DNA of 64,000 nucleotides from a virus (IMGVR_UViG_3300011116_001123:24931-88930), one strand, 5' to 3'; counted from the stretch's first letter, positions 19 to 58,268 are shown. The notes: generated from the letters alone by a model not told the origin. Program-made: numbers and translations.

Positions 19-570
19 TTATGGAGTCGGATAATCCACTTTCGGAACAGGTAGATTTCCTGCGCCGGTAGTACAGAAAGTTTGTTTCAATTCTTTGGTT
101 AAGGAAGGTGCGAAAACACTAACGTAAAAATTTGAAAGAATTATACCCAACTTGTCAGAACTACAATTGAAATATGCTTTAGATCCAAATCTATCGAGAT
201 CGAAAACCACATCATTATTTCCAGTAACGTCAGAGTATGCTTTTTGAATTTTGAAAGTTCCATATAAATTACCAATCTCATCAGGTTTGTTTTTTCCGCT
301 AATTACAGAATATGTGTTGAATTGTTTACCCACATATTTTTCCAAAAGATCTGGATTATTGAACGGATTTGTTGTCGTGTCTCCACTAGTAGTCCCACTA
401 GTTGGGTTTGGAAGAGTTGGATTTGACATTGGTGGAGTAGTCTTGGTTTTCACACCAGGATTTTCACCAGTTTGTACAACAGTGGTTTGAGTTTGTTCAC
501 TCATCAGTCGTTTCTCCAATCTTTGGTTGGCTTCTTGAATATGTCTGATTTTACTATAACTTCTATTCAT
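19..570 (-). CDS. Hypothetical protein with N-terminal leader (..LMSEQ) and Thr/Pro-rich linker
   Basis: 183-aa ORF; TATTTAT upstream on sense strand (586-592). Confidence 0.75.
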   Translation of the reverse strand: MNRSYSKIRHIQEANQRLEKRLMSEQTQTTVVQTGENPGVKTKTTPPMSNPTLPNPTSGTTSGDTTTNPFNNPDLLEKYVGKQFNTYSVISGKNKPDEIGNLYGTFKIQKAYSDVTGNNDVVFDLDRFGSKAYFNCSSDKLGIILSNFYVSVFAPSLTKELKQTFCTTGAGNLPVPKVDYPTP

Positions 571-604
571 AATTTTACATTTCCAATAAATATCATTGGG
601 GAAT

Positions 605-633
605 AAAAAACCCCACCTTTATGTGGTGGGGTT
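605..633 (-). terminator. Intrinsic terminator
   Basis: CCCCACC/GGTGGGG stem with T-run on minus strand, downstream of 655-1062. Confidence 0.75.
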
Positions 634-654
634 AATTTATTAAAGTTATTTATT

Positions 655-1062
655 TTATGCTTGAGGTTGTTGAGGTGCTTGAGCCTTTGCAATCGCATTT
701 GCCAAAGCATCAAGTGGTCCCAATACATTGGAAATTGCCGGTAAATATGGTTTGAACGAATTTGTATTTTGATATTGAGCAATAGCCTTTTTAATAGTAT
801 CAGGAAGATTACCAAGTTGTCTTCTGATTTTCAAAATATCATAAATTGCATTTATTTCATTTTGTTGAGCCTGATAAGTCTCTCTGTTCGTGGTTCTCAA
901 ATCTTTTCTTGCATCTCTTCTTGCGTCCTTTGCATCTCGAACCCCTGCTCTAGCAGCATCAAGTCCTTGTTGTGCCGCCAGTTGTTGACTAGTTTGTTCT
1001 TGTATTGCCCTTTTAACTAATTTTGCTAAATCAGCTTCGGTCATTCTTATAATTTTTCCCAT
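655..1062 (-). CDS. Leader-bearing helical protein (MGKIIRMTEADLAKLVKRAIQEQ)
   Basis: Class-1 leader; TATTTAT at 1080-1086. Confidence 0.8.
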   Translation of the reverse strand: MGKIIRMTEADLAKLVKRAIQEQTSQQLAAQQGLDAARAGVRDAKDARRDARKDLRTTNRETYQAQQNEINAIYDILKIRRQLGNLPDTIKKAIAQYQNTNSFKPYLPAISNVLGPLDALANAIAKAQAPQQPQA

Positions 1063-1161
1063 GTTGTGTTTAGTTTAATATAAATACTCATTACATAAAA
1101 AAAAATCCTCATTTTATGGGATACAGATAAAAAAAAGATTATTTTTGAAAAAAAAATCGAT

Positions 1162-1683
1162 ATGCTAAAATTCCCAATTTTTTTATTGATACCTTTCATT
1201 TTTGGGTTTCAAACACCAAATAATAATGATACACCCATCATTATTCACTTTGAACAGATTCTAAACGAATATCGGGATTCAAATGGGTTAAATCCAGTCA
1301 AAATTGACCACTCAATGAAAGAATTTACTGATTTACGTAGCAAAAGTTTAGTAAGCGATTATAGTCACAATGGGTTCAATAAAAACTTGCGATCATACAT
1401 TACAAATTTTACTGTGGGTGGTGAAAACATTGCAATGTTAATAAACGCTCCTAACGATAATAAGCCATATTGGTCTTCAGATATTGAAGAGGTTGGTAAA
1501 ATTCTCAACAAAATGTCCATGGGAACATCAACGAATTATGACGTGGCAATGTATTGTTTTTCGCTATGGAAGAATTCGAAATCTCATAATGAATTACTTC
1601 TTAACAATAAAGTAAAAAGGTTCTACCTTTCTTATGAAAAAAGTAAAACCTTTTATTATTTCTGTTTTATTGGATTAGATTAG
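1162..1683 (+). CDS. CAP/SCP-domain protein with hydrophobic N-terminus
   Basis: LNEYR..NGL, SH, GENIA and W.NS.SH..LL motifs of CAP domains. Confidence 0.75.
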   Translation: MLKFPIFLLIPFIFGFQTPNNNDTPIIIHFEQILNEYRDSNGLNPVKIDHSMKEFTDLRSKSLVSDYSHNGFNKNLRSYITNFTVGGENIAMLINAPNDNKPYWSSDIEEVGKILNKMSMGTSTNYDVAMYCFSLWKNSKSHNELLLNNKVKRFYLSYEKSKTFYYFCFIGLD

Positions 1684-2987
1684 TAGTAATGACAAGGAAG
1701 AACTCCTTTTCTAACGAACAATCCTTTCAAGGAAATATCTGGTAAGGTAATTTGTGGAAGTCTAATTTTAACTTTTAATCTTTTTCTACCCGTGGCACTG
1801 AATCTAACCATAAAATCAGTTTGAGAAATCGGTACAAGTTCTTCTGGAATTGGTTCGGTTGGTACGGGTTCAGATTGAGGTGGTGTTGTTCCTTTAACTG
1901 CAAAATCAAAAGTTAAATCTACTCTTTGATACTTCTTCAATTCATCTTTGTTTTGCCCATTGTATTCAGGTCCACTAGTTCCAGTACCATCAAGGGTCAG
2001 TGTTTGATTTCCACTCTTAACTGAGATTTGTTTTCCTGCATTAGTTCCTTGACTATCGATCTCAATACCCTCAGGATTAATTACTCCATTCCTTTGTTTA
2101 AGTCCCTCAACAATATAGTCATATACCACTTTTGCTCTTGCATCAGAAAGTTCTTTGAATGTTGGAATTTTTCCTGGAAAAGTTTTTTTACTCACACCAT
2201 TTGGAATTGTTGAACTCGATGACGTAATTTTCAATTTATTTACCCATACATCGGCAGGTTTTCTTCCTTCTTTCACAAGTTCTTCACTCATTTTTTTTAT
2301 TCCCTCATCAATACCACCAAAAATATTGTCATTAATATATTGAATGAATTCAGGAGTCATAACCGCCTCATTGAATTCGAATTGCATTGGTTGTTGAATT
2401 GTTGGTGGAGTGAACATTGTGTATCCTTGTTCCATTACTGGTTCACTCACTTTTCCTTCTTGAGGTGGTGTTATTTCCTCTTTGATTGTCACACTATCAT
2501 CAACAATAATATTTTTATCTTTGATAGTAGAACGTTTTGACCCCAATAATCCAGAATAATCATATCGTTGATCGAAAACTCCATCCCCATACTCTACTTT
2601 TGGTTTCCCGAGTATATTTTTTCCAGCGAATCGATCACGTGGCCCCGTGTATTTTGAAACCACAAATAAAAAAAACTTAGGGTTTTCAACTCTCATTTTT
2701 TCGAATACTCCGAGAGATGTTTCGTCCATAAGTCCTTTCATTTGGTCTAGTTCTTGCTTGAAGGCTTCACTATTAGCCGCCAACTCCCTTGAATAAGAAT
2801 CCAAATCTTTCCCACTTAAATATTTTTCGATATTTGGGTCACGAGATGACAATATTATATCAAGACTTTTCATTTGTTTGACGGAGATTTGTTCCGACAT
2901 CAAGTAAAGATTCTTTGTTGCTGATTCGTGAAGAGACAAAATTCTTTTTCTTTCTTCGTCCGATATTTGCCACGTTTGCTTTATCAT
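1680..2987 (-). CDS. Leader-bearing protein with OmpA-C-like peptidoglycan-binding domain
   Basis: Leader ISDEERKRILSLHE..LMSEQ; FEFNEA, LSDARAKVVYDYI and YQRVDL resemble OmpA-C motifs. Confidence 0.6.
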   Translation of the reverse strand: MIKQTWQISDEERKRILSLHESATKNLYLMSEQISVKQMKSLDIILSSRDPNIEKYLSGKDLDSYSRELAANSEAFKQELDQMKGLMDETSLGVFEKMRVENPKFFLFVVSKYTGPRDRFAGKNILGKPKVEYGDGVFDQRYDYSGLLGSKRSTIKDKNIIVDDSVTIKEEITPPQEGKVSEPVMEQGYTMFTPPTIQQPMQFEFNEAVMTPEFIQYINDNIFGGIDEGIKKMSEELVKEGRKPADVWVNKLKITSSSSTIPNGVSKKTFPGKIPTFKELSDARAKVVYDYIVEGLKQRNGVINPEGIEIDSQGTNAGKQISVKSGNQTLTLDGTGTSGPEYNGQNKDELKKYQRVDLTFDFAVKGTTPPQSEPVPTEPIPEELVPISQTDFMVRFSATGRKRLKVKIRLPQITLPDISLKGLFVRKGVLPCHYY

Positions 2988-2997
2988 ATTATATAAA

Positions 2998-4017
2998 TTA
3001 ATTTAAAAATACTTGAGATTCGAAGTTTCTACGTTTCGATAAACCAGGATAATATTGACCTGTCTGTGCTCCGGTGGTTGGACCTTGTGCGATGTAAGCT
3101 GCTGCAGCTTCCATATCTCCATCTACGATTGCATTTTTTATATTTTTCCCGTAATCCCTAGCAGTGAAAACATACGGACCAGCATTATAACTGAAACTTA
3201 ATAACGCGGCTTTTTGAGAGTCATTTAATTTTTCCCAGTTCAAGGGTCCAAGTTGGCTGGCAACGATTGGAGCGAAAGTATTTTTTAATTGATAGTCCAA
3301 AGTTTCTTCAGCTTCCTCAAGCGTCCAAGTGGTTTTGGGTGTCACATCGACCAACTTACCACCGACTAATTTTTTGGATGTTCCATACCCACCTCTATAT
3401 GTACCTTCATCATCTGAAGCTGTGTCACTGAACGTTTCAAATTTTCTGATGAGTTGCTTTGTCATTTCCAACCAATCACCCGATAAAGAAATATTGATAT
3501 TTCCGACTAACGGGTCTATTAATTTTTCTAAATCTTCAGAGTCGATATTTTTTTCTTTAAGAAGTTCAATCATCTTAAGTAACATTTCTTCTGAGGCTTT
3601 TGTCGGACCTACTTCTGATGATTCCTCAGATGAAGTTGAACTATCATCTTTTTCGACATGGTCATTAGTAAATTCTTCAACAGCTTCGGCAGTTTCAGGT
3701 CCAAACAACCCATCGACACCATGAATTGGTAAATCATATCCAAGAATAATCAAACCAACCTGCATTGATTCAACTTCTTTTTTGAAATTGTAACTACCTC
3801 GTTCTTGTTGAGATATTCCACCATCCTGAGCGGCAGTTTCCAATGTATCGAAAAATTCATCCACATCGACTCCAATTAAATCAGCTTTGGTTGGATCATC
3901 ATCTTTTTTGTAGCCAACGTCTTTCAAAAATCGGTCAATAAATTCTTGTTCAACAATTTGACTACCATACATCATGGAATGCATTCTGTGCAATTCCTCA
4001 GTCAATGATTTTTTCAT
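2998..4017 (-). CDS. Leader + peptidoglycan-binding domain + GH24 (phage) lysozyme
   Basis: MQVGL..LGY..GVDGLFGPET (PG-binding); FE..D.G..GYG, QKAALLSFSYNAG and GLSKRRNFE (GH24); TATTTAT 4022-4028. Confidence 0.8.
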   Translation of the reverse strand: MKKSLTEELHRMHSMMYGSQIVEQEFIDRFLKDVGYKKDDDPTKADLIGVDVDEFFDTLETAAQDGGISQQERGSYNFKKEVESMQVGLIILGYDLPIHGVDGLFGPETAEAVEEFTNDHVEKDDSSTSSEESSEVGPTKASEEMLLKMIELLKEKNIDSEDLEKLIDPLVGNINISLSGDWLEMTKQLIRKFETFSDTASDDEGTYRGGYGTSKKLVGGKLVDVTPKTTWTLEEAEETLDYQLKNTFAPIVASQLGPLNWEKLNDSQKAALLSFSYNAGPYVFTARDYGKNIKNAIVDGDMEAAAAYIAQGPTTGAQTGQYYPGLSKRRNFESQVFLN

Positions 4018-4058
4018 ATCAATAAATATACAAACTTGGAAAAAGGGTTGGTATTATC

Positions 4059-4310
4059 TTACTGAAGAAATCTTCTCCTACCCATTCTACCACGACCAAT
4101 CAATCTCATTCGTTCCCAATCATTCCGATCAAAAACAACTACCACGTGTTTTCTTCGGACAATGACCTTGGTTGCTTGTGGAAACAAGTCATATTTTTTA
4201 TTTACAACCTTTTCTGAGTCCAACAGATAATTTACATAATCCTTTTCCATAGTTTGAGCATTGACACCCAAACCCAATAGCATCATTACAATAAAAATAA
4301 TTTTTTTCAT
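4059..4310 (-). CDS. Small secreted protein (start moved to MKKIIFIV)
   Basis: Signal peptide MKKIIFIVMMLLGLGVNA-Q; TATTTTTG upstream. Confidence 0.65.
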   Translation of the reverse strand: MKKIIFIVMMLLGLGVNAQTMEKDYVNYLLDSEKVVNKKYDLFPQATKVIVRRKHVVVVFDRNDWERMRLIGRGRMGRRRFLQ

Positions 4311-4324
4311 ATCAAAAATATAAT

Positions 4325-4355
4325 AAAAAAACCCCACCTATTGAAGGGTGGGGTT
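4325..4355 (-). terminator. Intrinsic terminator
   Basis: CCCCACC/GGTGGGG stem plus T-run. Confidence 0.75.
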
Positions 4356-4390
4356 GTAAATTATTCAATTTTTGTTCACTACCTGTTTTC

Positions 4391-4921
4391 TTATTGAAAA
4401 CCACCTTTCTCGTCGTAGTAGCTTAGAATTTGACTAAGTACTGAGATTACTTGAGGTAAATTTTCTCTGTCGTATTGTGTGTATAGTGTTGTATAAGGAG
4501 TTCCGTTTACATCTCTATCATTCTTTCTTTTTGAATTTTTTCCTCTCATAGGAATTGATGCCAGCAATTGTTCGAATTTAATATCTGCAAAAACAGAGAA
4601 ATAGCCACCCTTAAAAACTGTCAAGTATAAACCATCTGCTCCTGGCGTGAACCACGATTCAATTTCATCATTACTACCCGATTCTTCGGCTGGATGTACT
4701 TTGCTTAATTCCGAAACTAATTTTCGATAATTCTTTTCGGTCTCTATTGACGGTGGATTTGAAGGAATGGAAGGCATTTTACGTCTGAAGTCGTCAAGTC
4801 TTCGTAGAGCCATTTTTTTAATTTCTTCTTTGCTTCCTGGAATGATAGCTCCTTGTTCTTTAATTACTCTTCTAACCAATCTAGTCAAATCTGCCTCGGT
4901 TAATCTAATAATTTTTTTCAT
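4391..4921 (-). CDS. Leader-bearing hypothetical protein (MKKIIRLTEADLTRLVRRVIKEQ)
   Basis: Class-1 leader; TATTTAT 4939-4945. Confidence 0.8.
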   Translation of the reverse strand: MKKIIRLTEADLTRLVRRVIKEQGAIIPGSKEEIKKMALRRLDDFRRKMPSIPSNPPSIETEKNYRKLVSELSKVHPAEESGSNDEIESWFTPGADGLYLTVFKGGYFSVFADIKFEQLLASIPMRGKNSKRKNDRDVNGTPYTTLYTQYDRENLPQVISVLSQILSYYDEKGGFQ

Positions 4922-4993
4922 GTAAAAAACGTTTAATAATAAATATTACACACTTAATAAAAAATAAAGCCCACTTTTACAGTAGGGCTTGGT

Positions 4994-6223
4994 TTACTTA
5001 TACAGTACAAAATTATTTTTTTTATCTTTCAAATCAATGACTTGAAACTCGGTGGGGGTTATGGGATAGACAAGATAATCGACAGCATCCTTATATTTTT
5101 TCGATTCAAACCTTTTTGCATCTGATTCGGAGGATTTGACTTGAATTGTTACGGCATCCTTACCTCTTCCCATAATCAAGTCCACAAAAAAATTCATATC
5201 AATAAAGTTTCCGTTGCCTCCACGATATAAAACATTGTATCCAAGTTTTTCAAAAGCATTGGCGACATCAGATTCCATTTGGTCTCCCAACTTGGAAAAT
5301 TTAGTGGTATACTTGGTAAAGTTCATTAAATCCTTTTTATCTTCCAAATATTTTTCGAACAAGTCCTTGAAGTTGTCTTTATATTTTAGTAGGATATTTT
5401 TGATTACTTCGGAATCCGAAGCTGTAGATATTGTGTCGAGAATGCTTTTAGCTGCAGTACTTCCATTACTTTTAGCCTTCTCCAAATAAGTTGACAATAA
5501 ATCAGATATGTCAGAATAGTTGGTGTTCAACTTATTAACATAATGCCATTTACCATTCGGATTTAAATTACCTTCATCATCAACGTACACCAATTTTTTT
5601 CTATTTAAGTTTCTTACAAAATAGTCATATTGTTTGTCGTTAATTTTACCATATGAATTTAATATTTTGGCACCTTTGAGATTGTCTTTAATATCATCTT
5701 GTTGAATATCAAATTTGATATCCGATAAAATATCATCAACCACTTTACGAAGGTTCAACCCTTCATTAGATTCCAACCAAGCCCCCAAAGAATTTAATTT
5801 GTTATATACATTACCACCCAACACCTTGGAGATATTCCCACTCAGTTTTTCTTCTTCCTGACGGGAAATGATTTTATCTACAACCTCTCTATTCCTGTTT
5901 TGATATCCAATACATCCAGTTGGGACTTGTAAACCACCAAATTTGGTTATGGTCATGCTTTTGCAGGCATATGAGCTCATATCCAACTCAATAACATCCT
6001 CACCCAATTTGATTTCCAAATATCCCTTATTCCCATACAATTGTGATAAATCATTGGAAGTCAATTTACCTTCTCCTCCATCAATGACAACAGGATTGTT
6101 CACATAGTAATAATTACCCTTTGAACCCAACGAACTACCTTTGATGGTCGCAATATTCACACCAGTCTGAATGACCTCAAGCAAATGATTTAACTGACCT
6201 TCTGAAATGATGAAGTTTCTCAT
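4994..6223 (-). CDS. Leader-bearing protein with C-terminal PD-(D/E)XK nuclease-like domain
   Basis: Start moved to MRNFIISEGQL (TATTTAT 6230-6236); G..ME..VA..F, VDL and TIQVKS motifs. Confidence 0.65.
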   Translation of the reverse strand: MRNFIISEGQLNHLLEVIQTGVNIATIKGSSLGSKGNYYYVNNPVVIDGGEGKLTSNDLSQLYGNKGYLEIKLGEDVIELDMSSYACKSMTITKFGGLQVPTGCIGYQNRNREVVDKIISRQEEEKLSGNISKVLGGNVYNKLNSLGAWLESNEGLNLRKVVDDILSDIKFDIQQDDIKDNLKGAKILNSYGKINDKQYDYFVRNLNRKKLVYVDDEGNLNPNGKWHYVNKLNTNYSDISDLLSTYLEKAKSNGSTAAKSILDTISTASDSEVIKNILLKYKDNFKDLFEKYLEDKKDLMNFTKYTTKFSKLGDQMESDVANAFEKLGYNVLYRGGNGNFIDMNFFVDLIMGRGKDAVTIQVKSSESDAKRFESKKYKDAVDYLVYPITPTEFQVIDLKDKKNNFVLYK

Positions 6224-6279
6224 ATAACAATAAATACTAAGAATTAAAAAACCCACCTTTATGGGATGGGGGAAACTAA

Positions 6280-6975
6280 TCACAATAAGTCAATAATCGG
6301 TTTTGACCACTCTTTCACTAATCGTTTGGAATTTATTTGTAAATTTTTAAAATTTTCTACAGTAAACGGACGACCTGATACTTTGGTCATAAATTCACCT
6401 TCTTTTCCTGGGTGGAACTTCCCCATGTTCTCTTTTACACCCAAACCAGGATAAGAAGAATTGTTTGTTCCGAATAAATAATTGTCTCCGAAATCGAAAA
6501 TGAACACGCTGTCCTGACAAAAGATTTCACCCAACTTGATAATATTTTTAATGAATTTGGGGTCATTATTGGAATTGACAACGAAATATGAATCCTCCTT
6601 TACCTCAATCGCATTTTCTTGCATATAGTTTTCGATATATGTACCCTTAACTTTGGTAACATCATACCCTACAACCAGTAATGAGGATAGTAGTTTTTTG
6701 TTCCGGCCCTTGTTATCGTATATGTTGATTCTTTTATCATCATCTTCGTCATATAAACAATTGGTTAAAGTTTTTCTGAACGCACTAATTACCGCACATT
6801 GATTGTTTTCAATGTATTTGTTTATTCTACTTAATGAAGATTCCACAATTTTATTAGACGAAACATTCGTCTCAATTATTTCTTGAAATAATTCAGGGTT
6901 TATTCGTCGTCTTAATGATACATAATCAGGATCATTCAAAATTTTTCTGTACTTGTCAATTAACTCTCTCATCAC
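6280..6975 (-). CDS. S-adenosylmethionine lyase-like protein (T3 SAMase family) with N-terminal extension
   Basis: ISAFR, N..RN, GTYIE, EDSY and FCQDSV in the same order as the T3 SAMase motifs as I recall them; TATTTAT 6979-6985. Confidence 0.65.
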   Translation of the reverse strand: MMRELIDKYRKILNDPDYVSLRRRINPELFQEIIETNVSSNKIVESSLSRINKYIENNQCAVISAFRKTLTNCLYDEDDDKRINIYDNKGRNKKLLSSLLVVGYDVTKVKGTYIENYMQENAIEVKEDSYFVVNSNNDPKFIKNIIKLGEIFCQDSVFIFDFGDNYLFGTNNSSYPGLGVKENMGKFHPGKEGEFMTKVSGRPFTVENFKNLQINSKRLVKEWSKPIIDLL

Positions 6976-7079
6976 TTGATAAATATAAGTTATTTTTTCT
7001 ATGATGTAAAAATATGAAAAAAAAAGAAAAACAAAAAATTTATCTTATGGTAATGTGTGAAAAAAGGGTTCGTATAAAC

Positions 7080-8261
7080 TTAAACTTCTAACCAACTGAT
7101 TGGTGGTTTGGAAACCTTTTTACACAGTCCTTTTTCCAATAAAAAATCATTTGTAGGCTGAATTTCAGTTTCGAAAGGCTTCAATGATTTCAAATTTGTT
7201 GAAACTCCATCCAATGTCACTTCTATCGTGATTTCATCACTCAAATATTTTTTATACAAGTAATTGCTCAGTTCGAGTGGACCTTTGGGTAATTCTTTCA
7301 TTTTTCTACTCAAAACCGTATTCCCTCTAATTTCTCCATTCTCTATCGCGTATTGACTCAGGGCATTCCTTACAATACCCTCGAGGAAAATATCGAATTC
7401 ATACAAATAACTTGCACCCCTTTTTGGTGCATAAAATCTCAAACTTCTACTCCCATGTTCAGTCACTATTTTGGTGGGGATTTTTCTATCAAAAACTCCA
7501 TCTTTGATATTGATTTCGACATACATACTGTAAGATTTTGCAAATTGATAAACCTTGAAAGAGTTGGAATTGAACTCTTTTGAAAATTTATATTCCACGG
7601 GGTTCTGAATAATCTTAGGTAATTGGTAAGGAGAGGAGGAACACCAATAATACCCTTCTTCACTTTGATTGGTAATATAATTATAAAGTCCAGCAGACCC
7701 ATATGTGCCGACACCGAGCCTTTCAGATGCTTCCTTCAATACGTCCAAAAAATTGGCACCCCCACAAGCGGTGAAAAATACTTTTGTTCCAGAATGAATT
7801 AAAGGTTTGAAACTATCCAAAAAAGTATTATCGAACATGTATGCACCTTTTTCCTTTTGGGTCATTAATAAGTTACCTCCCTTACCATGAGACCCAATAA
7901 CAAACTCATCAGTTTTAACACCCTTTTTTACAAGACCTTCAACAAAACTAACTGCCGAAGATAAACTTGTGAAAAATCCTGTAACGATTCCCAATTTTTT
8001 CAACAAGGAAAGAGCCATTTCTTCCCAACCATACAAAGGAAAAATTAATCGAACTTTTTTTATCGAAGCCGCAGGTTTATTTTTCAAAGCATCGAAATAC
8101 TTTTCTTTTTCCAAACCCTGAAATCGATTTTTTTCAAATGCACCGTCTTTACCCAAATAGTCAGATGTAGGTTTATCTGATGGGGCAACATTCGGATTGA
8201 ATAATCGTCTTGTTTGTTCTTTTAAAAAATTAAATTGATTTTTGGTTATACGTATTTCCAT
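7080..8261 (-). CDS. Leader-bearing protein with caspase/CPD-like (DUF4347-like) His-Cys domain
   Basis: FVIGSHG..G and VFFTAC motifs; TATTTAT 8267-8273. Confidence 0.55.
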   Translation of the reverse strand: MEIRITKNQFNFLKEQTRRLFNPNVAPSDKPTSDYLGKDGAFEKNRFQGLEKEKYFDALKNKPAASIKKVRLIFPLYGWEEMALSLLKKLGIVTGFFTSLSSAVSFVEGLVKKGVKTDEFVIGSHGKGGNLLMTQKEKGAYMFDNTFLDSFKPLIHSGTKVFFTACGGANFLDVLKEASERLGVGTYGSAGLYNYITNQSEEGYYWCSSSPYQLPKIIQNPVEYKFSKEFNSNSFKVYQFAKSYSMYVEINIKDGVFDRKIPTKIVTEHGSRSLRFYAPKRGASYLYEFDIFLEGIVRNALSQYAIENGEIRGNTVLSRKMKELPKGPLELSNYLYKKYLSDEITIEVTLDGVSTNLKSLKPFETEIQPTNDFLLEKGLCKKVSKPPISWLEV

Positions 8262-8290
8262 TATATATAAATACCAAACATCCCAAAAAA

Positions 8291-8332
8291 GGGGATGGGG
8301 ATTAGAACGGATGGTGCGGTATACGAATATCC
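8291..8332. repeat. Intergenic repeat copy 1 (internally deleted)
   Basis: GGGGATGGGGATTAGAACG-GATGGTGCGGTATACGAATATCC. Confidence 0.85.
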
Positions 8333-8333
8333 A

Positions 8334-8495
8334 TCATGACATCTTGTTCTTTAATATCTTCATTTCCCTTTCCAAACCTTCAATCTTATATCGAATCATC
8401 CGTTGCAAATCCTCCTCACCATACCTGATGGCAGATGCCAACATCTTATTCAAATTTTCAATTCTATCCTCCAAATCATTAAGTTGCTTTTTCAT
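8334..8495 (-). CDS. Small coiled-coil protein, 53 aa (not in ORF track)
   Basis: MKKQLNDLEDRIENLNKML...KNKMS*; TATATTTG host-type -7 element at 8500-8507. Confidence 0.65.
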   Translation of the reverse strand: MKKQLNDLEDRIENLNKMLASAIRYGEEDLQRMIRYKIEGLEREMKILKNKMS

Positions 8496-8539
8496 AAGAC
8501 AAATATAAAAAAACCCCCACCATAAGTGAGGGTTTCAAA

Positions 8540-9127
8540 TTAAATTATTTCCCAATCGATTTCACCATACTGGTCATAATCATCATTCTCATCGTGAGTG
8601 GAACCGTCAATATCTTCCTCAACCTTTCTATAAGCCTCACATGCACTTCTTGCCATAACCGTATGAGTCCATGTCTGAACGCAAGAACGAGACGCCTGAA
8701 TGGTATATTCCGTTTCCTCATTCTCTTCCCATCCTTCTTCATCCTCGCAGTCATCGTCAACAACATTCTTAGTTTTTTCGGGAACCCTTCCAAACTTATC
8801 GATTGATTCCATCAAAGAATTTCTAAATGCAATCAAATCCTTCAGAGAATAAATCTTAAATGAATAACTTGAGCAAGGGGATCCATTCACACCAATCTCA
8901 ACAAATTCCTTTGTTCCATCAAAACCATCCCAATGATAAATGGATAGACCTGAGGCATTATCAAATTCCAAAGTGGAATTATCAACATACATATAATCCA
9001 AATGCCAATCATCAGGATTGGAATCCTTCATATCTTTATACTCCTTCTCCAAATCACGAAGTTGGGTCAACGCTTTGGAATACTTCTTCTCAAAAGATTT
9101 CTTCCACTTATCACTATATTCTGCCAT
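8540..9127 (-). CDS. Acidic hypothetical protein
   Basis: 195-aa ORF followed by terminator hairpin 8507-8537. Confidence 0.7.
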   Translation of the reverse strand: MAEYSDKWKKSFEKKYSKALTQLRDLEKEYKDMKDSNPDDWHLDYMYVDNSTLEFDNASGLSIYHWDGFDGTKEFVEIGVNGSPCSSYSFKIYSLKDLIAFRNSLMESIDKFGRVPEKTKNVVDDDCEDEEGWEENEETEYTIQASRSCVQTWTHTVMARSACEAYRKVEEDIDGSTHDENDDYDQYGEIDWEII

Positions 9128-9171
9128 AACAAATTTTTTATAATGATAAGAAAAATTTTTTAATAAAAAAA

Positions 9172-9206
9172 GGGGTTGGGGATTAGAACGACCGAAGGGA
9201 GAACGG
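9172..9206. repeat. Intergenic repeat copy 2
   Basis: GGGGTTGGGGATTAGAACGACCGAAGGGAGAACGG, identical to the start of copy 3. Confidence 0.9.
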
Positions 9207-9213
9207 AAATATG

Positions 9214-17158: not shown

Positions 17159-17470
17159 ATGAAATATATTATACCTGAAAAAAGAATAGAAAGGTTGGCG
17201 AATAAGTACTTAAGTTCTTTAGGGTTAACAGAAGGAAATTATGATGAGGATGGGTTTGATATAATACAAGGTGTTAATCATATGCTGGCGTACCGTAGTG
17301 AAGAAGAGAAATTATACATGAACATTTACTTAATCAAAGACCTCCGAGACCTTTTTGATTTGACCCAAAGAGAAAGTATGACCTATATCAAAAATTGGTT
17401 TCAGGACGCATATGAAACAGATGTGAAGTCAGTATGGTTGTTGTTTCCTGATGAACCATTCACCTATTAA
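17159..17470 (+). CDS. Family-A small protein
   Basis: MKYIIPEKRI..KYL; LRDLFDL..WF..Y; TATTTAT 17148-17154. Confidence 0.75.
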   Translation: MKYIIPEKRIERLANKYLSSLGLTEGNYDEDGFDIIQGVNHMLAYRSEEEKLYMNIYLIKDLRDLFDLTQRESMTYIKNWFQDAYETDVKSVWLLFPDEPFTY

Positions 17471-18191
17471 TATGATTATAAAATAAATTGGACATTACCT
17501 GATGTCCACTTACCCCCAAATGAAAATCGAATATTTCTTGGTTGGTTTCTTCTTTTATTCTTTCCCCACCATTTTTCTCGATTAGTTTAATCATATTATC
17601 AATCTCCCACTTCATATAAATCTCATCACCCATAATAATTCTTTGGTTATCTCTATCTTGAATCTCTCTATTATAAAGAACATAGGGATCACAAGACCAA
17701 TAAAACACTTTGAAACCAACCAAATCGGAAATATAATTTATTAATTCCATTCTCTGATTTATGACCTCAGAATATAAGTGAAATGTGTTATCACTCGTTC
17801 TGTTGAAAACAATCTCATTTGATGTTTGTTCGGTTATATCTTCGGTACCATTTAAAACCGAATGGTTTCTTCCAAAGTTTGTGTTAATCCATTTTCTCGT
17901 ATCATGGTTTGCCCACATGAATCTTGAAAGAAATGACCAACCGATGATTACCACATCATTTTTTTGAATTGTTCTGATTTGTTCGATTACTCTATTGAAT
18001 ATCATGTCATTCCCCGCGCCAGGTATCCCATGATTTACAAGATTCAAGTTCATTCTGTTTGATAATAATTCAAACCATGTGCTCGGAAAACTTCCCCCAC
18101 AAAATGTCTTATATCTCCTATACTCATCAGTTTCCTCATGATATGGAGAACTGAAACTACAACCAAATATGTGAAGATTATTAATTACCAT
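17460..18191 (-). CDS. SGNH/GDSL-like hydrolase
   Basis: FGCSFS, NHGIPGAGN, IGWS...R and H....GH motifs. Confidence 0.7.
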   Translation of the reverse strand: MVINNLHIFGCSFSSPYHEETDEYRRYKTFCGGSFPSTWFELLSNRMNLNLVNHGIPGAGNDMIFNRVIEQIRTIQKNDVVIIGWSFLSRFMWANHDTRKWINTNFGRNHSVLNGTEDITEQTSNEIVFNRTSDNTFHLYSEVINQRMELINYISDLVGFKVFYWSCDPYVLYNREIQDRDNQRIIMGDEIYMKWEIDNMIKLIEKNGGERIKEETNQEIFDFHLGVSGHQVMSNLFYNHINR

Positions 18192-18239
18192 GTATTCTAT
18201 TCATCTGCCGTGTGTAAGCAACCACATGCCAATAAATCT

Positions 18240-19166
18240 TTATATTTTTTCTTCGGATTTATCAACATGTAAATCTTGATTTATGGAGTTTATCACAGCT
18301 CTCGCAATAACCTCATGACAATATTTGGATGGATGGTAATCTGTTAGCGCATTTTCAGGTATGTTCCCTCCAAACCCCTCTTTATCATAAGCGATGGTAA
18401 ACTTTTCTCTACAACTAAGTTGTAAATCACTTATGGTTTTATAAGTTTTACCTTCATGTTCTAATAATATATGTCTTTTCTTGTAAAATTCATCTTCGAA
18501 TAATGAGGGTAAATCATTAACCCAAAATAACACTTTGCTTTTAATACCTTGTGCCTCCAAATGTAAAAGATATTCTTTGATTAAATTTCCAAAATAATTA
18601 GTATGTAATTCAAGATAATCTTCTATGGTATAATTGTTTTCTTCTAACCATGGGAAAAAAATGGTATCGATTCCGTTTTCAACTGGACATTCTGACCCGT
18701 CATCAGCTTTACTAAGAACAACAGACACATCATCATAGTTTGGATTAGGATGTACGAAATAATCTTTTCCTTTGTATACAAACTTGAATCTGGATCTATA
18801 TGGTTGAGTCATTTGAAAAATGACATATTCAATATCATCAAAATAATAATTTTCTTCACTTAACCAAGAAGAACTTTTGATATGTCCATCTGCTGGTTCC
18901 TCGTATTTATCAAATATTTTTTTCAAAAACATGAGACTTGTTACATCACTTCCACCATTTGATGCTTTACACACTTCAAAAGTATTGAAATGGTTTGCGA
19001 CTAACCTTGGAAACCTTATAGTATCTTTATATTTGATTAACGCATCAGTCATTAGACTGTAATCAAATACCCAATCCTCAAATTTAGGAGTATGATTGAG
19101 GCTAGAATAAAAATACAGCCCCTGGCCCCAAGTGAAAGAACATCCCGCAAAAACTAATCCTTTCAT
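18240..19166 (-). CDS. SGNH/GDSL-like hydrolase
   Basis: AGCSFTWG, NGGS and DYHPS..CH motifs. Confidence 0.7.
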   Translation of the reverse strand: MKGLVFAGCSFTWGQGLYFYSSLNHTPKFEDWVFDYSLMTDALIKYKDTIRFPRLVANHFNTFEVCKASNGGSDVTSLMFLKKIFDKYEEPADGHIKSSSWLSEENYYFDDIEYVIFQMTQPYRSRFKFVYKGKDYFVHPNPNYDDVSVVLSKADDGSECPVENGIDTIFFPWLEENNYTIEDYLELHTNYFGNLIKEYLLHLEAQGIKSKVLFWVNDLPSLFEDEFYKKRHILLEHEGKTYKTISDLQLSCREKFTIAYDKEGFGGNIPENALTDYHPSKYCHEVIARAVINSINQDLHVDKSEEKI

Positions 19167-19173
19167 TGTGTAT

Positions 19174-19935
19174 TTATTTTTTCATTTCACTAAAATCCAC
19201 AAAGTTTTTTCGATTTGGATTTATGATATCGTTTATTTTTTTCGGAATAGTTTTTTCCCAATTCTCACAAATTAAATCCATTTCTTTAACATAATATTTC
19301 CCCATATTTTGTTTAATCCATTCCAAATGTGTTGAAATTGGTGGATGGCCATCTATTTGACCTGCAAGATCTTCAAAATAATAGTGTTCGTTCCTTTTGT
19401 TATGAAATTCTACTAAAGTTTCACCTGAAACCATTTCGTCTAATAATTCCAAACAAACGTCCACTGTTTGACCTACGTTTTGCGGTTTCGCATATTCACG
19501 TGACCCATCGATTTGATTAAAATCGAAAGACTTCATTAGTTGATACTCACATCCTATTGAATCCAATAATTGTTTTGCCGATGAAACTGAAAACCAAGTA
19601 TTGTATAACCCGAATTCCTCGCTCCATTTATTCATAACAAAATCTCCAAACAAACTGTGATTTTTTCCATAAATGCTGCCATTTGTTTCAAAATAAGAAT
19701 TTTGATTAATGTAATCGAATCTGTCTATGGATGAAAACATAATTAAGACTACGTCATCCTTAGTAATTTTATTCACATGATGACATTGATATAAATTACT
19801 AGAAATAAAAAAGTTTCCAGCTCCAGCTTTCCCCCAATTTTGAAATTCTTCAAACTGAGTTCCAATAATGTTTGCCCAAGTTTGCCATTTGTAATTTGTA
19901 AAACTGCAACCAAACGTAAAAAGTCTTTTACTCAT
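19174..19935 (-). CDS. SGNH/GDSL-like hydrolase
   Basis: FGCSFT, NWGKAGAGN and DGHP motifs. Confidence 0.7.
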   Translation of the reverse strand: MSKRLFTFGCSFTNYKWQTWANIIGTQFEEFQNWGKAGAGNFFISSNLYQCHHVNKITKDDVVLIMFSSIDRFDYINQNSYFETNGSIYGKNHSLFGDFVMNKWSEEFGLYNTWFSVSSAKQLLDSIGCEYQLMKSFDFNQIDGSREYAKPQNVGQTVDVCLELLDEMVSGETLVEFHNKRNEHYYFEDLAGQIDGHPPISTHLEWIKQNMGKYYVKEMDLICENWEKTIPKKINDIINPNRKNFVDFSEMKK

Positions 19936-21405: not shown

Positions 21406-21699
21406 ATGAAATACATTATCTCCGAGGGTCGACTTGATAACATCATGAAAAAGTATTTGGATTCATTTTTAACCTCCAAACAAATCTTGGATTATGATGA
21501 TAGTTTGGTAATCGCGGATCCGAATGCTGATGATGATAATCCACATTGGACTGAATATATGTTCTATAACTATGACGATGAGGACTTATGGGTGAACAAT
21601 CAATTTATTGAAGAATTCGGCTATTTGTTTAATAAGGATTATGAAGAATCTCTTGCTTTTATAAAAGATTGGTTTAAGAAAGAATTCAACCTGAATTAA
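21406..21699 (+). CDS. Family-A small protein
   Basis: MKYIISEGRLDNIMKKYLDSFL; TATTTAT 21395-21401. Confidence 0.8.
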   Translation: MKYIISEGRLDNIMKKYLDSFLTSKQILDYDDSLVIADPNADDDNPHWTEYMFYNYDDEDLWVNNQFIEEFGYLFNKDYEESLAFIKDWFKKEFNLN

Positions 21700-21701
21700 A
21701 A

Positions 21702-21986
21702 ATGAAATATATTATCTCCGAGGGCCGACTTGATGACATAATGAAAAAGTATTTGGATTCTTTCTTATTAAATAAGGATGTAATCGATAATCAAGCGGGT
21801 ATCGCCGTTTATGATGATGAGGAGAATTATTTAGAATACTTCCCAAGAAAAAGAGAACTATTCATATTGGGCGAATTCTTGGATGAGTTCGAGACTATGT
21901 TCGGTCTTACTCGAAATGAAGCAATTAAATTCATTCGGAATTGGTTCGAGAATGAATTCTATGTGAAGGTTCAAATGGCTGGATAA
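21702..21986 (+). CDS. Family-A small protein
   Basis: MKYIISEGRLDDIMKKYLDSFL; first ~60 nt nearly identical to the previous gene. Confidence 0.8.
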   Translation: MKYIISEGRLDDIMKKYLDSFLLNKDVIDNQAGIAVYDDEENYLEYFPRKRELFILGEFLDEFETMFGLTRNEAIKFIRNWFENEFYVKVQMAG

Positions 21987-21993
21987 TTTGGTT

Positions 21994-22335: not shown

Positions 22336-22336
22336 A

Positions 22337-23394: not shown

Positions 23395-23398
23395 TTGA

Positions 23399-29570: not shown

Positions 29571-29891
29571 TTATGTATTTTTTTTTCTCAGGGAATAAGC
29601 AACTGAAAGAGCTCCGAGAAACATAGAAATATGAACAGGAAACATGGGAAATCCTTGTAGTTCATGTAACATCCAAAAAATATTCATTGAGACCCAACTT
29701 GAAAGTATTAGATTTGTATCTCGTCGATCTTTCTCCGTAATCAATAAAAAAACTGTAAAAAAAATGGTTGGAAACACCATCAGGGTCGCCAACCATTTGA
29801 ATTTTAAACACCAAAATAAATCTTTAATTAACCAACAAGTGAAATGGGATTTTTGTAAAGACCAACCTGACAAAAGGTTTCTTATTCCCAT
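29571..29891 (-). CDS. Membrane protein
   Basis: Hydrophobic; WL.KD..W and W..MN..WM..E motifs. Confidence 0.65.
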   Translation of the reverse strand: MGIRNLLSGWSLQKSHFTCWLIKDLFWCLKFKWLATLMVFPTIFFTVFLLITEKDRRDTNLILSSWVSMNIFWMLHELQGFPMFPVHISMFLGALSVAYSLRKKNT

Positions 29892-30277
29892 ACCCCTTCG
29901 GAAAATATCACAGGTTTATTGTTTCTGTCAATCATAATCCATTCCGCTTTTACTAATCCGAATGGTTTAAAACATTCCATCACTTGTTCTAAAGTGAAAG
30001 ACTTACATGAATAGATGTCAAATTGCATCATGGGTAATTCCAAATTGTCCCAAATGTGAATCGAAGCATGTGAGGTTGCCAAAGTCACAGTTCCTGTCAA
30101 TCCCTCATTACCTGGATCCGAGACATAAACACTTGTGGGTCCAGCAACTACTTTCATCCCCACTCTTTCAACTAAATTTATAAACCAATGATTTAATTCC
30201 TCTTCTTTTTTCGGAGGATTAGTTATCCAACCTCTAATTAATAGATGTTGGTGATAGGGAGTAAATTTTTCCATCAA
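29882..30277 (-). CDS. speD: S-adenosylmethionine decarboxylase proenzyme
   Basis: G.TG.V.LATSHASIH.W and FDIYSC motifs (TSH at the pyruvoyl site). Confidence 0.8.
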   Translation of the reverse strand: MMEKFTPYHQHLLIRGWITNPPKKEEELNHWFINLVERVGMKVVAGPTSVYVSDPGNEGLTGTVTLATSHASIHIWDNLELPMMQFDIYSCKSFTLEQVMECFKPFGLVKAEWIMIDRNNKPVIFSEGVWE

Positions 30278-35689: not shown

Positions 35690-35714
35690 AAAAAAAAGGT
35701 CTTTCGGGACCTTT
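35690..35714 (-). terminator. Intrinsic terminator
   Basis: AAAAGGTC-TTTCGG-GACCTTTT hairpin with T-run. Confidence 0.75.
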
Positions 35715-36577
35715 TAAGTTTGAGTTTGTGTAAAATCAAATTCTCCTTGTTTTTTACTGTTCACAAAAAACTGAACCCTTTTTCTAACCACTTCACAATA
35801 GTTGGGGCTCAATTCAATTCCAATCCATCTACGGCCAAGAATTTCCGCACTAACCAACGAAGTTCCCGAACCAGCAAAAGGGTCTAAAACTACATCATTC
35901 TTATATGTAAGAATTTTTATTGCTTTCGAAGGAATATCCATCGAGAATGTTGCCTTTGTTTGTTGTTTTGTGTCGGCAAAGTATTCCCATTGACCATAAA
36001 CCAAACTCATAAATTCTTTCTTATCTTCTTCTTTGTATATGGTTTTCCTCTTCGAAGAACCATCTTCTTGTTCAATGTCAATTACTTCGGATTCCCATTG
36101 TGGGTCCCCTTTCAATTTCTTAATTCTATCTTTTTTGTAAGCAAGAATCACACATTCTTTCGGATTATAAATGTACGGACTTGAGGGAGACATCCAAGAA
36201 CCCCAAGCGGTAGTTTTACTTCTATGAGGAGAATTCTCATCCAAGTCCACAAGACCATAAAACTTAAATCCAACTTTTTTCATGATGGACCAAAACTCCG
36301 CCATAAATAAAACTCTACCTCCACGATCTTGAACATTGACTTCATAAGGGATGTTAATCGCAATCCTACCATCATCTTTAAGAACTCTGAACGCCTGAGT
36401 CAACCAATCATCCGTGAACCTCCAATAAGAGTTCATAGATTGATTATCATCGTGAACGTCGTAATCTATCCCCACGTTGTATGGGGGTGAGGTAACAATT
36501 AAATCAATTATTGACTCAGGTAATTTACCCATCTCAACAACACAATCACCATTTATAATCCTATTTGTTTCGAACAT
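35714..36577 (-). CDS. DNA methyltransferase, N4-C/N6-A beta class
   Basis: TSPPYN and [10 protein letters not shown] motifs. Confidence 0.9.
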
Positions 36578-47346: not shown

Positions 47347-48186
47347 TTAATAATTCAATATTAACAGCTCTTCTCCCATATTTTGTTTTGTACCTTTTTT
47401 TGCCGCTGCGGCTTTAGCGAATTCTTTTTTCTCCCACGTAAATTTGTTTTCAGGAAACCAATCGTGTAGTAATTCGAAATCATAGTATGACAAACTGAAC
47501 TTACCTTTTATGTTATTCAACGAAATTGCTAATCTTTCGTGGTCATCCCTGTCAAAATCATGGTTACTATAATAGTTTTCAGTTTTCCAATAAGGTGGGT
47601 CAACATAAAAGTAAGTAGAAGGGGAATCATACTTCTCAATCACGGCTTGAAAGTCTAAATTCTCCACGTCAGTAATTTTAAGAAAATGGTCAACCCAATT
47701 TGGTTTACTCAGTTTGTCCCTGAACGCAAGATATTTCGATCGATACTTACCTTTCAAATCAATAAAATTAGAAGTTTCGGGTTTACTACCACTAAAAACT
47801 TGAGATAATACATAAACGTACTTTGCAGCAGTTAAATAATCACAGGTTCCAACTCTGAACCCTTCACCAAAAATTTCAGACTGAAAGGTGTTAAACTTTT
47901 CTTTGAGTTCGAATGAAGTATCACTTATCCCGACTTGTTGTACCTCTATCTCGTCCATCACCCGTTGAAGTTCTGATGGGTTCTGAACACACTGAAATAG
48001 ATTATAATTTAATGGATTAAAGTCATTGTAAACGACTTTCTTAAGGTTTGAGTACTTCTCCAAGTCCATATTAAAAAAACACCAGAACATACCTGAAAAT
48101 GGTTCTACATATGTTTCCATGTCTGTTGGATAAAATGGTACTATCCACTTACCTATTTTTGATTTACCTCCAATATAACTTATCAT
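47347..48186 (-). CDS. Dam-like (D12 class) DNA adenine methyltransferase
   Basis: YIGGKS, YVEPFSG, ND, YVDPPY and ELLI.NY motifs. Confidence 0.9.
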   Translation of the reverse strand: MISYIGGKSKIGKWIVPFYPTDMETYVEPFSGMFWCFFNMDLEKYSNLKKVVYNDFNPLNYNLFQCVQNPSELQRVMDEIEVQQVGISDTSFELKEKFNTFQSEIFGEGFRVGTCDYLTAAKYVYVLSQVFSGSKPETSNFIDLKGKYRSKYLAFRDKLSKPNWVDHFLKITDVENLDFQAVIEKYDSPSTYFYVDPPYWKTENYYSNHDFDRDDHERLAISLNNIKGKFSLSYYDFELLHDWFPENKFTWEKKEFAKAAAAKKGTKQNMGEELLILNY

Positions 48187-57470: not shown

Positions 57471-58268
57471 TTACAGATAGTCAAAAAGAATACCTGTTTC
57501 GTTTCGTAACTTTCTCAGAGCTTTTTCTTTGATTTGTCTCACTCTTTCTTTGGTCAAATCGAAGTCACTTCCGATGTCCTCGAGGGTTCTAGTTGAACCT
57601 GATAACCCGAAATAATCCTCGATGATGACCTTTTCTCTCTCGTCCAAAACATCCAACATATTCAAAAGTTTTTCTTTCAGCGTGTCTTCAGTAGACAAAT
57701 TTTTATCCGCCAAATCAGCATTAGGATTCACCAAAATATCCAACAATGTATCACCCTCTTCATTAAGTGGATTGTCCAAGTTGATTGTATATGGAAGATT
57801 CACCATCTTTTCAGGTAATTCAACGCCAGCCTTTTCAAGTTCCTTCTTAGCTTTATGAAGTTCTTGAACAACGTTAACTGGAAGACGAATGGTTCTTGCG
57901 TTCTCATTAAGAGATTGCAAGATAGATTGTCTAACCCACCATACCGCATATGAAATGAATCTCAATCTTTTAGTCCAATCAAAGTTTTCTATCGCTTTCA
58001 TCAAACCAAGATTACCTTCCGCAATCAAATCACACAAATCCAAACCTTGATTTTGGTATTGCTTTGATACAGTGATAACAAAACGCAAATTACCTTCCAA
58101 CAATTCTTTTTGGATTTCTTTCTTCTCGTCTTCAGTGATAACTCCCGACAACATTCTCTCAGCAAGTTCACGCTCTCTTTCAGGAGTCATGACCTTTATC
58201 TTTCGAATGTCTTTTAAGTAATGACTGATCTCTTCTTGATTAATTGGAATTGAAGATTTTTCTTTCAT
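57471..58268 (-). CDS. RNA polymerase sigma-70 factor (RpoD/SigA-like, no region 1.1)
   Basis: NLRFVI, DLIAEGNLGL, RFISYAVWWVRQSI and TLEDIG..LTKERVRQI motifs. Confidence 0.92.
   Translation of the reverse strand: MKEKSSIPINQEEISHYLKDIRKIKVMTPERERELAERMLSGVITEDEKKEIQKELLEGNLRFVITVSKQYQNQGLDLCDLIAEGNLGLMKAIENFDWTKRLRFISYAVWWVRQSILQSLNENARTIRLPVNVVQELHKAKKELEKAGVELPEKMVNLPYTINLDNPLNEEGDTLLDILVNPNADLADKNLSTEDTLKEKLLNMLDVLDEREKVIIEDYFGLSGSTRTLEDIGSDFDLTKERVRQIKEKALRKLRNETGILFDYL

Follow-up and report, generated by a model that had tools for sequence, protein, structure and literature searches.

A predicted T3-type SAM lyase with an exchangeable leader that may direct it into the phage head

Introduction

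Known S-adenosylmethionine (SAM) lyases, such as that of phage T3, are early products, and their action has to wait until the genome is inside the cell and transcription has taken place; T3 gp0.3 is the first protein made after infection and is expressed from host-type early promoters (PMC8406200). A second point of reference is phage T4, whose head protease gp21 cuts after the glutamate in L/I-X-E, whose internal proteins carry targeting propeptides of 10-19 residues, and whose IPI* and Alt proteins block a restriction enzyme and modify RNA polymerase, respectively (PMC9026906). Here we describe a gene on the minus strand of a 64,000-nucleotide stretch of viral DNA (IMGVR_UViG_3300011116_001123:24931-88930; the whole stretch is called the window below). 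Its product is very probably an enzyme with the SAM lyase fold, and the lyase domain is preceded by a 44-residue leader that ends in the residues I-V-E.

On balance, and with caution, we favor a chain of events in which this enzyme is late, targeted by its leader, cleaved, packaged and injected. The lyase precursor would be transcribed alone from a phage-specific TATTTAT promoter, together with the head-morphogenesis genes, and its capsid-targeting leader would dock it into the prohead core. A protease of the gp21 type (Peptidase S77) would then cut after I42-V43-E44, leaving a T3-sized enzyme that starts with SSLSR and that would be retained in the head and ejected with the DNA. In the next host, SAM would be removed before any phage transcription, and SAM-dependent defenses (type I and III restriction-modification, and bacteriophage exclusion, BREX) would be starved. 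The enzymes of the phage itself that consume SAM (SpeD and two DNA methyltransferases) would be served by other promoters and act later. Taken by itself, the part of this proposal in which the lyase is cleaved and packaged seems to us fairly probable.

The gene and its product

The minus-strand open reading frame (ORF) at 6280-6975 is present and encodes 231 amino acids (aa) if translation begins at a GTG. The codon directly after the GTG is an ATG, at 6972, and public metagenomes contain identical and near-identical proteins that start at this ATG; because the database proteins have this 230-aa form, the ATG is the likelier start. The features of the gene are as follows.

6280..6972, minus strand: ORF of 230 aa plus stop, a leader followed by the SAM lyase domain (translation, Pfam, database homologues, AlphaFold2 model, fold match)
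6979..6987, minus strand: promoter-like, phage-specific motif TATATTTAT; the core TATTTAT is at 6985-6979, 6 nt before the ATG
6841..6972, minus strand: leader, residues 1-44, predicted helical, pLDDT 55-70 (alignment A1, AlphaFold2 model, leader comparison)
6841..6849, minus strand: I42-V43-E44, predicted prohead-protease site (L/I-X-E); a cut would give the new N-terminus S45-S-L-S-R
6283..6840, minus strand: predicted mature enzyme, residues 45-230, with PII-like/T3-type SAM lyase fold
6511..6645, minus strand: active-site block G110, Y112, E126 (with D127) and Q153-D154-S155 (conservation in A1, hhalign, residue roles from PMC7877911)
6242..6270, minus strand: terminator-like hairpin and T run, directly 3' of the stop codon

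The position of the hairpin, directly after the stop codon, suggests that the gene is a self-contained transcription unit. CheckV puts the source contig, an 88.9-kb virus record, at 29% completeness, from which a phage genome of about 300 kb follows. DNA of the contig recurs in metagenomes labeled mostly freshwater, but also riverine, aquatic, aquaculture, sediment and viral; no RNA sequencing dataset was among the datasets listed as carrying it, and a megablast search of the lyase region against phage records gave no match.

The six motifs named in an earlier sequence-only reading of this DNA are all present in the order given there: AVISAFR (60-66), N87..R90N91, GTYIE (110-114), EDSY (126-129), FCQDSV (151-156) and GEFMTKVSGRPFTV (192-205). 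The C-terminal pattern G.F.....GR.[FW].V is also seen in the translation of T3 gp0.3. The Pfam family PF23780 (S-AdoMet_lyase) matches residues 86-194 with 35.5 bits against a gathering cut-off of 28 (E 1.1e-8); T3 gp0.3, the positive control, scores 143 bits, and the homologues of the phages CP220, PANV1 and Mel-JY01 score 66, 66 and 40 bits. All 120 listed homologues carry PF23780.2. From these, 45 were picked and aligned with the window protein (alignment A1, 46 sequences), and the AlphaFold2 model built on this alignment (pLDDT 80, pTM 0.70) is a PII-like alpha-beta sandwich. The sequence-only reading had proposed structure prediction against the T3 and Svi3-3 SAM lyases as a check on its claim of SAM lyase homology, and the outcome agrees with that claim: in a Foldseek search of the PDB the seven best matches are all SAM lyases, the T3 enzyme being the best, at weak E-values of 5e-3 to 0.15.

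In A1, the residues G110, E114, Q153 and D154 are invariant, and Y112, E123, E126, S128 and S155 are conserved in at least 90% of the sequences. When A1 is aligned to T3 gp0.3 (NC_003298) with hhalign (87 columns, E 5.9e-4), the motifs SAFR, N..R, G.Y.E, the acidic pair and QD[SC]V are paired, so that R66 corresponds to R19, G110/Y112/E114 to G55/Y57/E59, E126-D127 to E67-E68 (where the alignment is possibly off by one residue) and Q153-D154 to Q94-D95. The corresponding residues of Svi3-3 are G56, Y58, E69 and Q104-E105-S106. In the Svi3-3 and T3 enzymes the glycine, glutamate and glutamine are strictly conserved, the tyrosine and the next acidic residue line the active site, and the functional acids are E68 in T3 and E50 in Orf1 (PMC7877911). 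The Pfam score above the gathering cut-off, the best fold match to the T3 enzyme and the conserved active-site residues together argue for a SAM lyase homologue of the PII-like T3 type, with a predicted activity that converts SAM to methylthioadenosine and homoserine lactone. By family, a homotrimer with active sites at the subunit interfaces would be expected; a three-copy complex prediction from A1 scored 0.00 in a run without controls and bears neither way.

Other databases describe the family less directly. PHROGs returned families of unknown function and phrog_2226 ("SAM-dependent methyltransferase", E 2e-4), a product label that the GenBank record of T3 gp0.3 also bears, and a search of NCBIfam found no family for the protein. 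DUF3293 (PF11697) overlaps the SAM lyase domain in several homologues (P0092, P0118, P0165 and L113:274-849), with sub-threshold matches in CP220 and PANV1; the DUF3293 and SAM lyase families may be related.

The enzyme adds a new member to an established family, one already represented in Pfam. We found 157 homologous proteins at E <=1e-3, and 440 IMG/VR stretches, and the source names of the listed homologues are all "hypothetical protein" or empty. Homologues occur in phages of cyanobacteria, Campylobacter, Alishewanella and Paraglaciecola, and the carriers range from marine and Campylobacter myoviruses of 140 kb through freshwater jumbo phages of 320 kb to Lak megaphages of 540 kb. Five carriers are cultured: PANV1, CP220/IBB_35, Mel-JY01, Slicko01 and S-N03. 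Their homologues are gp48 of PANV1, gp189 of CP220 and AEI88246 of IBB_35, WWT39336 of Mel-JY01, WGH49604 of Slicko01 and QIN96776 of S-N03. The Mel-JY01 homologue (L003:5974-7260, P0166) has 428 aa, its lyase domain being followed by a 230-residue tail with a stretch rich in Pro, Glu and Lys; this extension shows no similarity to the gene downstream of the lyase gene in the window, and a literature search on Mel-JY01 found no paper. The tail ends in a helix (ITREQLKEKIRIIVKRVLNE) like the N-terminal leaders of the window's phage, a leader-like module at the C-terminus.

The N-terminal leader and its junction

About 45 extra N-terminal residues ending in IVE had been noticed in the sequence-only reading, and the comparison of structures bears this out. 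The structural alignment to T3 gp0.3 begins at model residue 48-52, which is T3 residue 4-6; SAFR is at 63-66 in the window protein and at 16-19 in T3. Relative to T3, some 44 N-terminal residues are thus extra, and they end in I-V-E before an almost invariant SSLSR, with residue 1 of T3 falling 3-4 residues past the predicted cut. The leader is modeled as three helices, and residues 38-44, at pLDDT below 50, are the lowest of the model. Its start resembles the 14-18-residue leaders of short homologues: residues 1-14 match the whole leader of homologues of 201-206 aa, and residues 15-40 form an insert with the motif LRRR(I/L)(N/P)PE, which in the window protein reads LRRRINPE.

The junction is conserved across the family, and the region before it varies in length. 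In A1, E44 (46/46) and R49 are invariant, and S45, S46 and L47 are nearly so. The pattern of Glu followed by S-S-L-x-R is found in 148 of the 166 stored homologues. Eleven of the 18 misses begin past the junction, as truncated or mis-started calls; five differ in the residues that follow the Glu (three read ESYLNR, one ESNLNR and one ESSVKR); P0014 has an extra Glu at the junction and is caught by a looser pattern; and P0101 is unclear. The stored homologues and the IMG/VR loci (75 of 80 loci gave a leader) yielded 144 distinct leaders, of 3-61 residues with modes at 14, 18 and 44. Glu at P1 was imposed by the search pattern for these leaders and is shown independently by A1. P3 is Leu in 78, Ile in 52, Val in 10 and another residue in four (L/I/V in 140/144), P2 is Asn in 70, Ser in 28, Thr in 23 and otherwise one of 11 further residues, and P1' is Ser in 142 of the 144. 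I42-V43-E44 is thus a predicted site that fits the L/I-X-E rule of gp21, and the idea that IVE could be a cleavage site gains from the behavior of the leaders described next.

Exchangeable leaders

Judged from sequence comparison, the leader behaves as an exchangeable module and tracks the phage and not the enzyme. The junction stays fixed at varying leader length, and the leader is swapped in one of the IMG/VR homologues. In this homologue (L033), 16 of the 22 leader residues are identical in the leaders of three unrelated proteins of the window (4391-4921, 12613-12951 and 34932-35294); the last of the three matches a peptidoglycan-binding family below threshold (19.8 bits, cut-off 23). Most homologues have leaders of 14 or 18 residues. 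Three neighboring proteins of CP220 start with M[TK]FK[DG]Y[LI], and four proteins of Mel-JY01 have 10-residue L-x-E leaders, its lyase starting with MQFKQYILGE. The window leader itself shows no more than a weak resemblance to the N-termini of the four paralogues at 21994-24016 and of the 26142-26570 product (BLAST E 1.3 and 2.5, with 128 proteins in the set).

The likeness to T4 is closest in the Paraglaciecola phage PANV1, whose homologue starts with MKTFSEFLGE followed by SGLSR. The T4 internal proteins IPII and IPIII start with MKTYQEFIAE; 6/10 positions are identical and 4/10 are conservative changes. Between 24.3 and 27.5 kb PANV1 has seven consecutive plus-strand genes with such starts, six of them with Glu10, and the lyase gene is the sixth. 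Further such starts occur elsewhere in the genome, and one (MKSYQEFLVE) adjoins the protease gene. At least 5/10 start positions are shared by 9 of 492 raw PANV1 ORFs, the mode being 1. The starts in this array (L116 region) follow MK[ST][FY]..[FY][LIM].E in the style of the T4 internal proteins, and all its products are annotated as hypothetical.

Recurring leaders are also seen among the window's small late-motif genes (19-14162, 17159-17470, 21406-24016, 26142-26570 and 34932-35294), which use few leader types before mature parts that are unrelated and nearly all without a Pfam or PHROG match. The type MKKIIRLTE[AS]DL..V.R.I.E occurs in the genes at 655, 4391, 12613 and 34932, the type M..II.E[SG]RL in those at 10606, 10921, 13273, 17159, 21406 and 21702, and the type MNLQEDIDRIKEVMGINE in the four tandem paralogues at 21994-24016.

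Promoter motif and timing

The sequence-only reading had placed the gene behind a late motif. The motif upstream, TATATTTAT, is real, and its TATTTAT core recurs in the contig and in a relative, G002, a complete 321-kb genome with terminal repeats that has the G+C content of the window (33%) and a homologue 60% identical to the lyase. In the contig TATTTAT occurs 74 times on both strands, and it stands within 30 nt upstream of 36 of the 128 ORFs, in gene orientation. This placement is far above chance and makes the motif strongly promoter-like. The distance to the ATG is 4-6 nt in 21 genes and 12-24 nt in 15; in the former, this spacing implies leaderless or nearly leaderless mRNAs. The following features of the window bear on the use of the motif.

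19..14162, minus strand: small units of terminator, TATTTAT and ORF in an array; most of the products have short leaders ending in [LIV]-x-E; the SAM lyase gene is one unit
29882..30274, minus strand: SpeD (AdoMet decarboxylase), a SAM consumer (PF02675, 44.5 bits); no TATTTAT upstream
35714..36577, minus strand: N6/N4 DNA methyltransferase (PF01555, 127 bits); no TATTTAT upstream
47347..48186, minus strand: D12-class (Dam-like) DNA methyltransferase (PF02086, 80 bits); no TATTTAT upstream
57471..58268, minus strand: phage sigma-70-family factor with regions 1.2, 2 and 4, a candidate for the factor that reads TATTTAT

In G002, TATTTAT(A) precedes the head-protease gene, an ORF in the position of gp22 (assigned from T4 gene order) and two large ORFs upstream. 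In the window the genes that have TATTTAT include a lysozyme gene, and the SpeD gene and the two DNA methyltransferase genes are without it. The sequence-only reading had counted three methyltransferases beside SpeD; two and SpeD were found, and the third was not searched for. Taken together, the enrichment of TATTTAT upstream of ORFs, its presence before the head genes of G002 and its absence from the SpeD and methyltransferase genes make late expression of the lyase gene likely. An [LIVM]xE ending at residues 5-10 is found in 14 of 32 late-motif genes as compared with 17 of 96 others (Fisher p 0.0045), and overall in 31 of 128 as compared with 13-21 in control windows. Other window genes have TAnnTTTG-like sequences upstream, which we take to be the typical housekeeping promoter of Bacteroidota.

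The T4 late promoter TATAAATA was also considered for the contig and rejected, with 13 matches against 7.5 expected, most of them on the strand opposite the genes; read in gene orientation, the opposite-strand matches are the motif TATTTATA. Within 60 nt upstream of the homologues, TATAAATA was found in none of 75 IMG/VR loci. Upstream of individual homologues we observed a perfect copy of TATAAATA some 22 nt from the ATG in Lak-A1 (L110), TAGTAAATA in Slicko01 (L112), TAATAAATA in S-N03 (L114) and, in about 20 IMG/VR loci, ACTATTTA(T/A) preceding a GGAG ribosome site. From these upstream sequences, the homologues seem to stand behind T4-late-like promoters in several lineages.

Head protease in carrier phages

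Peptidase_S77 (PF03420), the gp21 type, is found above cut-off in 16 of 17 carrier records. These include CP220, Mel-JY01, Lak-A1, Lak-B5, Slicko01, PANV1 and S-N03, and 9 of 10 IMG/VR contigs longer than 100 kb; the one contig without a match is 36% complete, and the five contigs of at least 90% completeness are all positive. In G002 the gene for the S77 protease lies next to a capsid gene of the gp23 type, the nearest relatives of the capsid protein being those of an uncultured 484-kb phage and of Mel-JY01, and the lyase gene lies within an array of terminator-promoter-leader genes like that of the window. T4 gp23 is cleaved at E65|A. BLAST aligns the G002 capsid protein to T4 gp23 only from residue 73 on, and the equivalence of its I-N-E60|A to this position is suggestive only. 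The head-protease match of Lak-B5 (W04 492862-493179) contains two in-frame TAG codons and that of Lak-A1 none, which fits stop-codon reassignment in some Lak phages.

Neighboring genes

PHROGs and Pfam searches of the neighbors at 4994-6223, 7080-8261, 8540-9127, 9214-10458 and 1680-2987 returned nothing. The gene at 2998-4017 (minus strand) has the late motif. Its product is a phage lysozyme that combines a peptidoglycan-binding domain with some 75 additional residues at the N-terminus, among which are two [LIV]-x-E sites; instead of being the endolysin, it may be a wall hydrolase carried by the virion. Four paralogous proteins (17460-19935, and contig positions -2330..-1509 relative to the window) share the start G-C-S-(F/H)-(T/S), which recalls SGNH/GDSL hydrolases.

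Discussion

If a SAM lyase were delivered with the DNA, it would close the gap before transcription and would be the first metabolite-degrading internal head protein. A cell's SAM pool is about 1e5 molecules. With the ~300 copies per head of each T4 internal protein (PMC9026906) and the turnover of 9.5, or about 10, per second of Svi3-3 (PMC7877911), some 3,000 SAM molecules would be cleaved per second, and we therefore estimate that the pool could be cleared in under a minute. Injection would also explain how phages that need SAM for methylases of their own, SpeD or radical-SAM enzymes can afford a SAM lyase. The idea of the sequence-only reading that the propeptide holds the enzyme back is speculative, the sole hint being that an N-terminally truncated, tag-free construct of Svi3-3 had nearly twice the turnover of the full-length His-tagged one (PMC7877911). 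More tentatively, and with some doubt, we extend the proposal to the T4 superfamily as a whole: a packed and injected SAM lyase would be widespread there, its leader would both target the prohead and block SAM depletion in the producing cell until the protease removes it, which would let the phage run methyltransferases and SpeD of its own as well, and the nearby arrays would encode an injected arsenal. If so, the leader-gene arrays around the lyase would be a large and unexplored source of host-takeover proteins. A leader that ends in L/I-X-E, within an array that follows a late promoter, is a sequence signature by which injected proteins of this kind could be sought in uncultured T4-superfamily and giant phages.

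Several points weigh against an injected lyase. The main chain is predicted from sequence and models for the window protein and its homologues alike. The Foldseek matches to SAM lyases include none at E <=0.001, the hhalign probability for T3 gp0.3 is a weak 29%, and searches of PDB sequences with the single protein and with the 46-sequence profile found no SAM lyase at E up to 10; moreover, specificity for SAM or SAM-AMP is not readable from the sequence. The late timing rests on the association of the motif in G002. The protease link rests on relatives, the window's own 88.9-kb contig having no match to PF03420 or to PF07068 (gp23), and the co-occurrence may mean simply that the subfamily is confined to T4-superfamily phages. 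At 44 residues the window leader is longer than the 10-19 of T4. Its first relic site reads ILND, where close relatives have ILNE, and Asp at P1 blocks processing in T4 (PMC9026906). [LIVM]xE is common, at 2.1% per position, with an N-terminal enrichment of only about 2-fold. Conservation on the SSLSR side, where R49 is invariant, goes far beyond what cleavage by gp21 requires. A structural or catalytic role could therefore explain why the junction is kept, and E44 would then belong to the functional enzyme. Finally, after ejection a trimeric enzyme would need to refold and assemble.

An alternative explanation is that the lyase is a late cytoplasmic enzyme, neither cleaved nor packaged, whose N-terminal helices are permanent and serve oligomerization, regulation or partner binding. 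Its activity would reduce SAM in late infection, perhaps to block methylation by the host or a co-infecting phage or to keep out superinfecting phages. The near-invariance of SSLSR and R49 beside E44 beyond the needs of a protease, the contig without a protease gene and the chance frequency of [LIVM]xE would all fit, and since the T3 SAM lyase also acts through contacts with MetK (PMC8406200), extra segments could bind partners. However, leaders of anywhere between 3 and 61 residues precede a fixed junction, the leader is swapped between unrelated proteins, the other small proteins of each phage share that phage's leader, and the leader in PANV1 closely resembles the capsid-targeting sequence of T4. 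The leader is also modeled with low confidence, T3 gp0.3 lacks one entirely, and late SAM depletion would be at odds with the modification of progeny DNA by methyltransferases that the phage itself encodes. We consider this explanation unlikely.

Less likely still is a SAM-AMP lyase, an anti-CRISPR protein like AcrIIIB4 that degrades the SAM-AMP messenger of type III-B CRISPR, whether packaged or not. The phage's promoters other than the late ones look Bacteroidota-like (TAnnTTTG). The signaling system was discovered in Bacteroides, the PII-like fold and the Glu/Gln pair are also those of SAM-AMP lyases, and the one characterized phage enzyme also has an extra N-terminal part (PMC12255297). 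However, the protein passes a Pfam model built on T3, its best fold match argues for the T3 type, and the spread over phages of cyanobacteria, Campylobacter, Alishewanella and Paraglaciecola suits a universal metabolite better than a rare messenger. The fold is likewise common to the non-enzymatic PII and CutA proteins and lyase activity is only predicted, so that one could imagine a ligand-binding or structural head protein whose lyase activity was lost or never existed, for instance a packaged binder of small molecules or nucleotides. G-x-Y, E and Q-[DE]-S are, however, invariant or nearly so in 46 homologues, which is hard to explain without catalysis and makes this reading highly improbable.

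The injected lyase that we favor differs from each of the described systems in one respect or another. T3 gp0.3 (PDB 8bb1, 7ock) has 152 aa and no leader, whereas the window protein has a 44-residue leader, stands behind a phage-specific promoter common to head genes, and belongs to T4-superfamily phages. The Svi3-3 SAM lyase (PDB 6zm9, 6znb) has the same PII-like fold and the G56/Y58/E69/Q104-E105-S106 constellation. The SAM-AMP lyase from C. botulinum and phage AcrIIIB4 (PDB 9gab, 9gad) also have this lyase fold and the catalytic Glu and Gln, with an added N-terminal part in the phage form. In searches of open-access papers, and apart from the BF23 paper (PMC10644984), which has both SAM lyase terms and virion-protein terms, no paper was found to describe a SAM lyase as a virion, internal or ejection protein. 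The virion proteome of IBB_35, a cultured carrier, comprises 38 proteins (PMC3322345), and no virion proteomics was found in passages of the PANV1 paper. A late, leader-bearing and probably injected SAM lyase would be new. Its closest parallels would be IPI*, IPII, IPIII and Alt of T4, which like the proposed enzyme have a short L/I-X-E leader, are late, belong to variable arrays of small genes and act after ejection (PMC9026906). However, none of the T4 internal proteins is a SAM lyase or a metabolite-degrading enzyme, the window leader is longer and of a different sequence class, and packaging of the window protein is a prediction.

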